Positions 41,147 through 44,257 of a DNA stretch of 62,741 nucleotides are shown here, piece after piece. The stretch is taken from positions 1-62,741 of the forward strand of contig JAYODI010000026.1 of the NCBI GenBank assembly GCA_038279365.1. Direction: 5' to 3'. This DNA comes from Candidatus Latescibacterota bacterium. Lineage in GTDB: Bacteria; Latescibacterota; UBA2968. How positions within the stretch are numbered: the stretch's first letter is position 1; each line of letters begins with the position of its first letter. The notes under the pieces were generated by a model. It saw only the letters and a list, made by a program, of their open reading frames with translations, had not been told where the DNA came from and did not search any database. The translations under genes and the position numbers were made by a program.

Positions 41147-44100
41147 ATGGCAATTGATATGCAGGCACCGTGGCATAAAGATTCTTGGGATGCATTTTTG
41201 CAAAATGGGTTGCCCCGTTTATTGGCTGACCGTGTGGGGATTGCAGGATACAATATTGAGCAGATAGATACCTATTTTTGTCGGTTGCATTTGTCAGTGA
41301 AGGGAACGCGGGGCTTAACCGATGTGGTTTATGAAAATATCCCTTTGTGTGATGACTTGGGGCGGTTTCGTGTTGATGGGTATACGCGCATAGTGGTACC
41401 CAAACCCACAGAAGTAGATTTGGAAAAGGCCGACATTTTGTGTGTGGGTGAGCAAGTTTTGGGGTTTTTGGCTACACAAATTGGCGACGTGCCAGAGGGT
41501 ATTGTGGGAACAGATGCGATTTTGGCGTGTTTGCCTTTGGCCGAGTGGATTCACGAATTTTTTGTTTCCGAACCGACGTCACAGTATCTGCAAATGACAA
41601 ATGATGTGGATATGCACACCCACTTGCGACGCATTACTTTATACACACTTTTGGGTGAAGCGATTGACGACAAGTATGTCGTTCACCCGTCACAAGAAGG
41701 GCGTGTTTGTTTGTTTGCCACACCCGAAGGACCCAATATTTCGCGCATTTTTGAAGTGGCGTTAGGGGCAACGATTCGAGATGGCAAGTTGATTGTTGTG
41801 GATGATACCCCTGCAATGGCCTTGGGGAGCAATGCGTCGATGATTCCGTTTTTGGAACACGACGATACCAACCGGTCTTTAATGGGCATGAATATGGTGC
41901 GCCAATGGGTGGGCGTGCCAAACCCAAAGTGGCCACGTGATGAGGTGGGTGTTTGGCACACCTACCACAGTGAATATGACGGGCTCAAACCCGAAACAGA
42001 ACCGGCCTTGGTGCAAACGGGTTGTGAGACAGATGATGCTTACTTTTGGAAAGGCTATAATCTGCTGACCGCTTTTATGTCTTGGGACGGCGATACCTAT
42101 GAAGATGGCGTGGTGATCAGTGAGTCGGCGGCAAAAAAAATGACGCAACCCCAAGGTGTGGCATTGGGCGATAAATTGAGCAATCGACACGGTTACAAGG
42201 GGGTGGTGACACGGATTTTACCCGACGCAGATATGCCATACTTGCCCGATGGCACGCCGGTGGAATTGATTGTGAGTGTGTGCTCATTGCCTTCTCGAAT
42301 GAATATGGGGCAATTGCGAGAGGCGGCATTGGGGCGTGTGGCAAAGGCCGAGGGCAAACCCGTGATTGTGCCGCCATTTGCTGGGCCGTCAACGGAAGAA
42401 ATAAAAGGGCGATTGAAAGCCAATGGATTGTCTGATGATGGAATGGAACAACTGACGTTAAAGGGGAATGCACTTCCGCGACGCACAACAGCAGGGTGGG
42501 TGTATTGGGGGCGGTTGAGTCATATGGTGAAAAATAAGATTCACTTTGCGGTGCATCCTCAAGAGAGAGGGCAGTTTTTGGGCGAGATGGAGTTTGTTGC
42601 GCTGAAAGAAGCGGGTGCGGTGGCTCTTGTGAATGAGTTTTTCAATACGTGTTCTGCCGAACATCCAGAAGCCGATTCTTTGGCTGATCGTGTGTCTAAT
42701 GGAACGGTATCACCTGCTGGTGCACCTTCGGCAAGATATGGTGCTTTGACCAGGCGATTAGGCTGTGACGGCGTGGTGGCGTCACTGGGTGATAAAGGCG
42801 TGTCATTTTCAACTAAACAGTCGGGTGATTTTTCTTTGGCGCGTTCGGTGGCGCATCCGTGGCTTTCCGGGCATCAATTGTCTCATATTGGGCAGACCGA
42901 TTTGCCTGAGGGCGAGGCGGTGCAAGAGGCCAACGCGCGTTTGGAACAGATGGTTGCCAAGGGTGCGCCTCAGGTGCTGATTGATCGGGCAACAGACACC
43001 TTGTCAGAGCGGGTTCAGGCTTTTTATAATGTGTTGGTGACACGAAGGGATTTGTGCTTTCAGGCGCGGGTAATTTTTAGCGGGCGTTCGGTCATTGTGC
43101 CCAATAAACATTTTAAATATGACCAAGTGGGTGTACCAGAAGAAATGGCGTGGGCATTGTTTGGGCCGTTTGTGACACGGGCATTGGGCAGTGACACGGA
43201 CGTGAAAAAACGCTCGAAAAAAGCAGAGCAGGCGTTGGATGAGGTGATGGCAAAAATGTGGATTGTTTCAACGCGTGCCCCTGCGGTGTCACCCACTTCG
43301 TTTTTGGCATTTCATCCTGTGCGTGTTTCGGGTGATGCGATTCAAGTGCCCATTTTGAGCAGCAAGCTGATGGATGCCGATTTTGATGGCGATCAAATGG
43401 CTTTGTTGTTGCCCGTGACGGATGAGGGGCAACAGGCTGCGCGCGATCATTTAACTGTTAAGGCACATTTGACCCGCGACCCCAGTTTGATTCGGCGTGA
43501 AAAAATTCACCCCATGCACGACGCGTTATTTGGTTTGGCCACGTTGAGTATGACCGATGCTGGTTTGAAGGCATTGGAAGACATTGCGGGGGAACCTTTC
43601 AAGCGTGAAGGCAAGTTTTTAGATAAGAAGCATTTTATCGCTTTGCTGGAAAATGTGATGATCAAAGACGGGGCAGAAGCGGTGCTGGACTTGTCTGAAC
43701 GGTTGCAAAGAAAAGGTTTTGAAGTGGCCCAGCAAACAGGGGCTTCGATGGGTGCGTTTTTGGGTGGCGACCTTAATTTGCCCAATCCGCCAGAAGGAGA
43801 TGATGTGGATGAGTGGCGATCTTATGTGGATGAGTTGACGGCTGAATTGAGTCCGTTCGATGATTTTAACGATGACGAATTTGGCGTGATCGCCATGTTG
43901 GCCGAATGTGGTGCAAGGGGCAATTGGACACAGTTACGGCACTTTGTGGCCCCTCAGGGGTTGGTTCGCACCGCACGAGGTGACTTGATGCCCATTCGGC
44001 ATTGTTACCGAGATGGTCTCACCCCCCAAGAGATTATCACACGAACCGTTGGCGCACGCTTGGGCTTGGCCAATGCGTTGGCTGAAATGATGGAGGTCAA

Positions 44101-44257
44101 CCGCGATTTGTCCATTCAAGGGGCACCCAGTGGTTACGGTGTTTTGTCACGCGCTCGTCGCTCAGAAAAACCTGGCGTGGTGTTTGCCCGGGCCGCACAA
44201 AAGGGTGAAGTGGACCCTTTGACGGATGAATACAGTCGGTTGTTTGTTGGGGTGTAG
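41147..44257 (+). CDS. miniaturised fused beta/beta' DNA-directed RNA polymerase-like protein (1036 aa)
   Basis: RpoB motifs THLRR, [60 protein letters not shown].LGEME, then RpoC motifs [34 protein letters not shown], all in one frame; RBS GGAGG. Confidence 0.92.
   Translation: [1036 protein letters not shown]

Follow-up and report, generated by a model that had tools for sequence, protein, structure and literature searches.

The 62,741-nucleotide contig JAYODI010000026.1 of a Candidatus Latescibacterota bacterium (assembly GCA_038279365.1), referred to in the following as the window, carries on its plus strand an open reading frame (ORF, 41102-44257) of 1051 codons that encodes RNA polymerase subunits beta and beta' fused into one much reduced chain, a mini RNA polymerase (Table 1). 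Its true start is probably the ATG at 41147 (M16), yielding a product of 1036 amino acids (aa), because homologues and the family model begin at residue 16 and residues 1-14 are unstructured in the structural model; residue numbers given here count from 41102. A gene for a sigma factor of the extracytoplasmic function (ECF) type lies directly upstream behind a promoter of its own, and a predicted intrinsic terminator follows the polymerase gene. A first-pass annotation of this DNA had singled out the segment 44051-44257, which comprises the codons from G984 to the stop (the last 68 codons and the stop codon). It described a bridge helix spliced directly to the native beta' C-terminus with no trigger loop, and the residues that it quoted are present exactly.

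Table 1. Coordinates of the features at the mini polymerase locus, in the numbering of the window (NTP, nucleoside triphosphate; MFE, minimum free energy).
Feature	Position	Strand	Basis or remark
Fused beta-beta' mini RNA polymerase gene	41147..44257	+	listed ORF start 41102; probable start M16, giving 1036 aa
Beta-like half (aa 16-565)	41147..42796	+	contains Rpb2_3 and Rpb2_6 but neither the flap nor most of beta 1-387
NTP-phosphate-binding motif of the beta barrel, GDKxxxRHGxKG (aa 356-367)	42167..42202	+	residue conservation
Beta'-like half (aa 566-1051)	42797..44254	+	hhalign and VIA
Clamp coiled-coil (helices aa 602-619 and 624-645)	42905..43036	+	aligns with own rpoC 262-310; helices from the AF2 model
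Catalytic DFDGD (aa 760-764), DADFDGDQ in the window	43379..43393	+	D760 in 78/81, D762 in 79/81, D764 in 78/81 homologues
Bridge helix, one continuous helix aa 975-1007 (GAR 984-986)	44024..44122	+	DSSP on the AF2 model; aligns with rpoC 736-770
C-terminal module aa 1009-1050, counterpart of the beta' C-terminus (GITKASL and region H)	44126..44251	+	structure, alignment and homologues
ECF-type sigma-70 family gene, 196 aa	40490..41080	+	listed ORF start 40421; ATG 40490 probable from homologues
ECF-type promoter TGAACC-N14-GGTGTC	40444..40469	+	47 nt before the ATG of the sigma gene
Intrinsic terminator, 13-bp GC-rich hairpin and U-run	44289..44326	+	MFE -24.7 kcal/mol, z = -6.34, 0/200 shuffles as good
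Two upstream genes, 321 aa (DksA/TraR C4 zinc finger) and 323 aa (no family)	38374..40292	+	Pfam zf-dskA_traR 8.2e-09

The Pfam domains found in the mini polymerase are Rpb2_3, Rpb2_6 (1.4e-43) and Rpb1_2 (6e-14) only, and its top matches among solved structures (phmmer against the PDB) are bacterial beta (6.4e-52) and beta' (6.7e-27). The NCBIfam models for rpoB, rpoC and rpoBC are matched in part and far under their cut-offs, with 190 bits versus 801 for TIGR02013 (rpoB), 126 versus 963.5 for TIGR02386 (rpoC) and 207-208 versus 5372 and 4632 for NF007172 and NF011417 (full-length RpoBC). The protein fails the defining tests of all three, and the features of the two-barrel (double-psi beta-barrel, DPBB) superfamily are present, namely a beta-type barrel, a beta'-type barrel and a bridge helix. 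The Helicobacter- and Wolbachia-type RpoBC fusions represented by NF007172 and NF011417 likewise have beta N-terminal to beta' in one chain, but are full-size (2839-2890 positions) and keep all domains. An AF2 model of the whole protein, built on an alignment of 81 homologues, reaches a pLDDT of 94.1 and a pTM of 0.92, with residues 1-14 below 50. This genome, of 6.03 Mb and 98.5% completeness, also encodes canonical rpoB (1255 aa) and rpoC (1363 aa), adjacent on another contig (C20); in this rpoC, GAR at 756 marks the bridge helix, GEPGTQLTLRTFH at 902 the trigger loop and 1285-1326 region H. Conserved blocks of the mini polymerase are 35-40% identical to canonical beta and beta', and fusion together with extreme reduction has shrunk the size from about 2600 aa for rpoB-rpoC to about 1036 aa.

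In the beta half, hhalign against the genome's own rpoB (2.1e-53) pairs family columns 103-536 with rpoB 388-1252, leaving rpoB 781-1020, the flap region, and most of rpoB 1-387 without a counterpart in the family. A VIA fold search aligned model residues 6-565 along whole beta/Rpb2 chains with Z 26-29; as this run on the whole model covered the beta half only, the beta' half was folded and searched separately. All conservation counts given here derive from the alignment of 81 homologues, which are 33-74% identical to the window protein. The phosphate-binding motif of the beta barrel is retained throughout, with G356, D357, R362 and G364 in 81/81 sequences, K358 in 74 and K366 in 76. Note that about 24 residues are inserted after the NMxRQ motif of the beta part (aa 268-298, 41900-41990), a stretch left unaligned by hhalign and apparently specific to a subclade, as the majority consensus of the family is without it.

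For the beta' half, hhalign against the own rpoC (4.4e-34, probability 99.9) equates residues 601-997 with rpoC 262-769 and ends in the middle of the bridge helix. This half opens with LARSVAHPW, similar to the beta' motif IELAAPVSHIW (ELAxPVxHxW) that follows the zinc-binding domain, and it retains the clamp coiled-coil, which we take to be the canonical docking site of sigma region 2; the names flap, rudder, zinc domain and sigma-2 dock were assigned on the assumption that they carry over from the RNA polymerase of E. coli. About 25 rpoC residues in the rudder region are replaced by 8 in the mini polymerase, as evidenced by hhalign and BLASTP, and the beta' N-terminus before residue about 100 including the zinc domain, most of the beta lobes and the jaw are absent as well. 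The aspartates of DFDGD occur in 78-79 of the 81 homologues and the residues of GDKxxxRHGxKG in 74-81, and judged by these counts the catalytic residues are under selection. Residue 758 (43373-43375), before ADFDGD, is an aspartate in the window and in 20 of the 81 homologues, an asparagine in 48 and a glutamate in 7. The canonical asparagine at this position contacts the ribose of the incoming NTP, and given this variation the discrimination of sugars may differ.

After the bridge helix only 44 residues follow, and the AF2 model places three short helices in them (1014-1020, 1024-1034 and 1043-1049, of 7, 11 and 7 residues) before the chain ends. Relative to the own rpoC, the junction is a jump from about 783 to about 1271; about 490 residues including the trigger loop are absent, and the tail corresponds to rpoC about 1271-1320. 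Mapping of domains with hidden Markov models (HMMs), as proposed in the first-pass annotation, upheld the absence of the trigger loop: PF04998 (Rpb1_5) gives no match to the mini polymerase even at E<=10, compared with 1.9e-72 for the canonical rpoC of the genome. A trigger-loop motif was not found in the protein, and BLASTP and hhalign against the own rpoC both stop within the bridge helix.

The assignment of the tail is supported by structure. The model of the beta' half (aa 566-1051, pLDDT 86.8) aligns over 471-478 of 486 residues with E. coli beta' 19..1355 at Z 29-30; for M. tuberculosis beta' the aligned range is 9..1256, and for that of T. thermophilus 7..1470. As the last model residue falls on E. 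coli beta' 1355, the tail lands at the end of region H. In addition, residues 1013-1050 match residues 1625-1661 of P0267, a longer fused polymerase, in a pairwise alignment of 38 aa with 37% identity and E=0.006, and the motif of the module, G[VF]L[SA]RA...PG...[VI][FL]A[RK]AA..GE.D, stands at the very C-terminus of P0267 and P0248, after the trigger loop that these retain. Profile searches point the same way without reaching significance. An HMM of the tail run against the 39,911 ORFs of the genome was colinear on rpoC region H with a non-significant E=84; with the bridge helix included, rpoC was found at E=5.5, about fifth among the ORFs listed. In HMMER domain 5, where the tail (VFArAAakgEvdpL...) is paired with C. 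thermocellum beta' 1143-1166 (VLTEAAIKGKVDPL...), the score is -1.9 bits. The fold alignment to 19..1355 and the match to P0267 support the view that the bridge helix is joined directly to the C-terminal module of beta' with no trigger loop between them, an internal loss and not a truncation. The equation of the quoted APSGY with the ANSGY of the canonical bridge helix was not borne out, as the model helix 975-1007 is continuous and of normal length, the tyrosine is found in 27 of 81 homologues, and the pairing in BLASTP requires an 11-residue gap.

The junction is a property of the family. The segment between GAR and the end of the helix has 24 residues in 56 of the 81 homologues, the loop 8 in 74 and the tail 38 in 74, and because the largest excess at the junction is 14 residues none of them has room for a trigger loop. 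The missing region is thus retained in none of the 81 homologues, and the same junction is found throughout. Within the junction region, conservation is highest in the tail (R1017 and A1018 in 80/81, P1024 in 79/81, A1031 and G1050 in 81/81). The C-terminal two thirds of the bridge helix, in contrast, are variable, with the most frequent residue at positions 991-1008 reaching at most 34/81, as would be expected if packing against trigger helices is not required. Loss of the trigger loop is only one of many, for the flap, lobes, rudder, zinc-binding N-terminus and jaw are gone too. The two catalytic barrels are kept, as are the bridge helix, the coiled-coil of the clamp and the clamp anchor at the beta' C-terminus.

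A word-index protein search scored 8000 candidates, of which 328 reached E<=0.001. Full-length members of the family comprise 1000-1070 aa at 98-99% query coverage and, where named at all, are called 'hypothetical'. In a collection of one genome per species, 232 stretches encode a relative, and 80 related loci from this collection were used for all neighbourhood counts. The loci span about eight phyla (Latescibacterota, Gemmatimonadota, Poribacteria, Planctomycetota, Chloroflexota, Armatimonadota, Kiritimatiellae and Verrucomicrobiota). Within Latescibacterota the distribution is patchy: 65 of 168 genomes carry the gene, or 19 of the 52 of high quality, with 21/21 in one genus and 0/15 in another. 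An architecture this old and shared across the family, present in 81/81 homologues, in 65/168 genomes of the phylum and in several other phyla, does not fit the 'precise internal deletion' that had been proposed. The loss is indeed internal, but a single precise event in this particular gene is not supported. A few genomes contain two family matches (G075 and G131; loci L035 and L049), and duplication of the module can occur, as seen from the two full-length copies in G075. Metatranscriptome contigs of 151-245 nt with at least 99% identity fall inside the gene in two runs from two studies, which is a weak hint of transcription, as these are assembled contigs and the libraries can contain DNA.

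These data also bear on the idea that the missing half is an artefact or is encoded elsewhere, be it through gene decay, faulty assembly or a split gene whose trigger-loop part lies apart. Phage matches that cover at most 38% of the protein can be quoted in its favor. The same uninterrupted frame and junction, however, recur in complete chromosomes and in 81/81 homologues, a PF04998 search turns up the canonical rpoC and no other gene in the own genome as well as in 5/5 carrier genomes of other lineages, and a protein ending in the C-terminal module of beta' has had nothing cut off. We consider this explanation already contradicted and scarcely credible. The single PF04998 gene in 6/6 carrier genomes likewise led us to reject a trigger loop supplied in trans or by a split gene.

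An origin from phage or plasmid was rejected, as none of 50,697 phage and 72,556 plasmid records covers 80% or more of the protein. By tblastn, 34 of the phage records match, with the limited coverage mentioned above, and matches in PHROGs are to generic polymerase and sigma families only. Pfam scanning and comparison of loci revealed no phage genes in the neighbourhood, and the GC content of the locus (0.45-0.52) is near that of its surroundings. Note that the GC skew is strongly positive (0.12-0.33) in each 1-kb bin of window positions 30000-46000, irrespective of the coding strand.

As to function, the only measured precedent is YonO from the Bacillus subtilis prophage SPbeta. According to PMC5467207, this single-chain enzyme of about 100 kDa is homologous to multi-subunit polymerases, contains both barrels and is without trigger-loop homology, as is the mini polymerase; it equals the cellular enzyme in the efficiency of RNA synthesis, makes more errors, shows no hydrolysis or proofreading and binds wrong NTPs better (Km 126 versus 458 uM). 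YonO differs in being phage-encoded and having few active-site residues in common with cellular polymerases, while the mini polymerase is chromosomal, beta/beta'-like (E in the 1e-50 range) and linked to a sigma factor. The mini polymerase, unlike YonO, also has a recognizable bridge helix and clamp helices. No SPbeta-type match was among the 15 listed of the 34 matching phage records, and no direct alignment with YonO was made.

With moderate confidence, and on the grounds of sequence and models, we read the mini polymerase as an accessory RNA polymerase of one chain that arose from bacterial rpoB-rpoC, with trigger-loop-independent catalysis and probably with a sigma factor of its own. Catalysis would proceed on the two-metal centre (DFDGD) and the lysine/arginine motif of beta alone, without closure of a trigger loop. 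The enzyme would then be expected to discriminate poorly between substrates during RNA synthesis and, as in YonO, to be without intrinsic cleavage, proofreading or pausing that depends on the trigger loop. With this precedent, an enzyme that is competent but inaccurate and non-proofreading is to be expected, rather than a crippled one. The first-pass annotation had anticipated a slow, abortive or low-fidelity enzyme, one in need of a trans-acting factor, or one with a different activity; a slow or abortive one is possible by analogy but not required, since YonO is fast and processive without trigger-loop homology. Initiation would most likely depend on the upstream ECF-type sigma factor encoded in the same operon (promoter 40444-40469, terminator 44289-44326), with sigma region 2 docking on the retained clamp coiled-coil.

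The sigma protein contains regions 2 and 4 only (Pfam Sigma70_r2 4.3e-17, r4_2 2.7e-14). It scores 110.8 bits with TIGR02937, the model of the ECF superfamily with a cut-off of 42.9, and reaches no specific NCBIfam equivalog cut-off. Its gene is found directly upstream and on the same strand in 77 of the 80 loci and abuts the polymerase gene in 66 of these, often with a 4-bp overlap, the remaining 11 having a gap of 1.2-2.3 kb. Of the three loci where none is seen, one is without upstream DNA, and L048 and L057 are without an adjacent sigma gene. In L012 (5165-6958) a gene of the ABC exporter type (597 aa) is found on the same strand between the two genes, and a gap of similar size is present in L011-L019, L021 and L025, all from one Latescibacterota subclade; the gene in the gap was inspected in L012 only. 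In 34 sequences the linker between regions 2 and 4 holds a motif, PGWMIDxxSLGPD (aa 135-146 of the listed ORF), that is nearly invariant across phyla. Linkers of ECF sigma factors are usually poorly conserved, and this one may contact the flap-less polymerase.

Upstream of the sigma gene, the promoter motif [TG]GAAC[CTG]-N14-[GC][GCT][TC]GTC was found in 71 of 76 loci, with an identical span of 26 nt in 70 of the 71 and a position mostly 44-50 nt before the sigma start, in a few cases further away. A regulon search with this motif gave 3 matches in the own genome versus 1 in a reversed-sequence control, and 2-5 versus 0-2 in five other complete genomes, with the sigma promoter in each set. In the own genome the stretch 40444..40469 is the only clear copy. 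At the other end the hairpin at 44289-44326 is, by its predicted fold and position, the terminator that closes the sigma-polymerase operon.

A complex of the sigma factor with the beta' half was predicted with a score of 0.49 (runs 0.43, 0.49 and 0.50), the best of 3 controls giving 0.01; contacts agree to at least 52% and the partner pLDDT is at least 64. The alignments used were our own. Of 157 solved complexes 116 attain the mark applied, as do 2 of 215 mismatches; at values of 0.60 or less it is attained by only 18 of the 157 and by both mismatches. As sigma-beta' complexes have been solved before, the pass may reflect likeness only. With the coiled-coil kept, the linker conserved, the genes translationally coupled and weak support from the complex prediction, the sigma factor is probably the initiation factor of the mini polymerase.

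The main rival to this assignment is that the sigma factor serves the core polymerase of the host only, as an autoregulated ECF sigma whose single output is the mini polymerase. The latter would then act independently of sigma, perhaps on unusual templates, and could for instance produce untargeted or structure-primed RNA, RNA:DNA hybrids or primers, or copy RNA in the manner of QDE-1. It owes this rank to the missing flap, the ordinary ECF promoter and the lack of a visible regulon. The promoter has canonical -35 and -10 elements at fixed spacing in those 71 of 76 loci, and a motif essentially unique to each genome is what would be expected if the operon were the whole regulon. The gene that follows the sigma gene in ECF operons is usually a regulator or an output, and losing the rudder, the lid region, the zinc domain and the flap would weaken the separation of RNA and DNA strands. 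It is the retained coiled-coil, the linker with its unusual conservation across phyla, the 4-bp gene overlap at many loci and the weakly positive complex prediction (0.49 versus 0.01) that speak for a partnership instead, and we regard service to the host core alone as rather unlikely.

A further alternative is that the protein merely imitates core polymerase, with no relevance of its catalytic side, and ties up its sigma factor as a decoy anti-sigma. Anti-sigma factors usually sit at position +1 after an ECF sigma gene, the place that the polymerase gene occupies; no anti-sigma-like gene is conserved in the loci, and the coiled-coil on which sigma region 2 docks is retained. For a pure decoy, however, near-invariance of DFDGD and GDK..RHG.KG among proteins of 33-74% identity is unexpected, and about 1000 aa of well-conserved polymerase core would make a costly one. 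This explanation appears very improbable.

Several observations weigh against our preferred reading of an accessory polymerase with its own sigma factor. The architecture and its conservation, the gene linkage, the promoter and the coexistence with a normal rpoB/rpoC are directly seen, but catalytic activity in the family, the partnership with sigma and the kinetic consequences are something that we infer from sequences, models and analogy. Residues 1009-1034, with the conserved R1017, A1018 (80/81) and P1024 (79/81), might conceivably reach the NTP site. The equivalence of the tail and region H is not significant by sequence alone and draws on the endpoints of the structural ranges together with the one pair at E=0.006. 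The loci L048 and L057 possess a mini polymerase without an adjacent sigma gene, the beta flap, on which sigma region 4 canonically docks, is absent, and the predicted sigma-polymerase complex lends weak support. The promoter motif occurs essentially once per genome with no regulon visible, and with its ordinary ECF -35/-10 geometry it could be read equally well by the host core enzyme. Taking the preferred reading one step further, we tentatively envisage an orthogonal second transcription machine in several phyla, in which a beta-beta' chain of about 115 kDa would form a holoenzyme with its own ECF-type sigma factor, without alpha, omega, flap, zinc domain or trigger loop. With the sigma promoter present only once per genome, the target of such a machine possibly would not be ordinary genes.

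Among candidates for the trans-acting factor suggested in the first-pass annotation, only the sigma gene is universally linked. The two genes that precede the operon overlap by 19 bp and are separated from it by a hairpin-like stretch and the sigma promoter. The zinc finger of the 321-aa protein lies at its very N-terminus (aa 13-44) with no preceding coiled-coil. Synteny of the pair with the operon is seen in 17 of 80 loci; it is clade-specific and outside the core module. With this query the DksA-type zinc-finger protein was found in 1/5 other carrier genomes, and there unlinked, so that a role as a universal trans factor was rejected. Across clades the 80 loci have no further neighbour in common; the metabolic genes found on the opposite strand are clade-specific, and no alpha or omega genes are linked to the mini polymerase. 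A reading as a defence system was discarded as well, as PADLOC reported nothing for the polymerase or its neighbours and weak matches of CARF models fell on the helix-turn-helix of the sigma factor (E 2e-4 and above). Downstream, 44566-49669 encodes a DUF6886 protein (5.8e-59), a BlaI-type repressor and a BlaR-like membrane protein of 1289 aa with several repeated TonB-C-like segments; BlaI homologues are also found 3' of the polymerase gene in related Latescibacterota loci.

In comparison with known enzymes, the mini polymerase resembles canonical beta and beta' in both DPBB barrels with their motifs, in the bridge helix and the coiled-coil of the clamp, and in ELAxPVxHxW and region H. It differs from the subunits of its own genome in being one chain and in lacking trigger loop, jaw and insertion (rpoC about 784-1270). 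QDE-1, gp66 of the crAss-like phage phi14:2 and gp96/gp64 of P23-45 are likewise minimal single chains with two barrels and a bridge helix (PMC10770324). They are very distant in sequence and have no linkage to a sigma factor, and the mini polymerase is without even a detectable part of the trigger loop. No QDE-1-type polymerase is among the fold-search matches listed, an absence that proves nothing. By analogy the mini polymerase would work like YonO and other single-chain two-barrel enzymes, standing outside their families as far as tested and being far closer to bacterial beta/beta'. The reduced beta-beta' fusions P0262 (1613 aa), P0267 (1670 aa) and P0248 (1948 aa) are likewise fused and shortened and have the same C-terminal module, but keep the trigger loop (of the ...TQLTLRTFH... 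type) and a partial Rpb1_5 match that the mini polymerase family is without. P0248 is apparently a triple fusion of alpha, beta and beta' with RNA_pol_L and the RpoA insert domain at its N-terminus. P0262 and P0267 are beta-beta' fusions of middle size with little besides the C-terminal module after the trigger loop, and may represent intermediate stages in a succession of polymerase reductions. A full-text literature search retrieved no description of the mini polymerase family, and an earlier mention may exist; the consulted portions of the ECF classification paper PMC7826278 and one of its supplements, looked up for polymerase terms, contain no mention of it.

A second cellular-type polymerase is thus carried by some bacteria beside the normal one. 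The family raises the question of what constitutes the minimal working core of a multi-subunit polymerase, here about 1000 residues in a single chain. To our knowledge, the trigger loop is regarded as an essential element of catalysis and fidelity in all cellular-type RNA polymerases, and its removal from the E. coli or Thermus enzymes cripples catalysis. Here its natural loss, together with that of most peripheral domains, is found in a clearly bacterial beta/beta' protein selected in hundreds of genomes beside a dedicated sigma factor. The family therefore bears on trigger-loop-free catalysis in a bacterial-type active site and on whether sigma-dependent initiation works without the flap, and a compact, possibly orthogonal pair of sigma factor and polymerase is of interest to synthetic biology. 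If the protein does form a holoenzyme with its own sigma factor, no sigma-dependent polymerase of the cellular lineage would be smaller, and it would prove that the bacterial catalytic core can work without a trigger loop.

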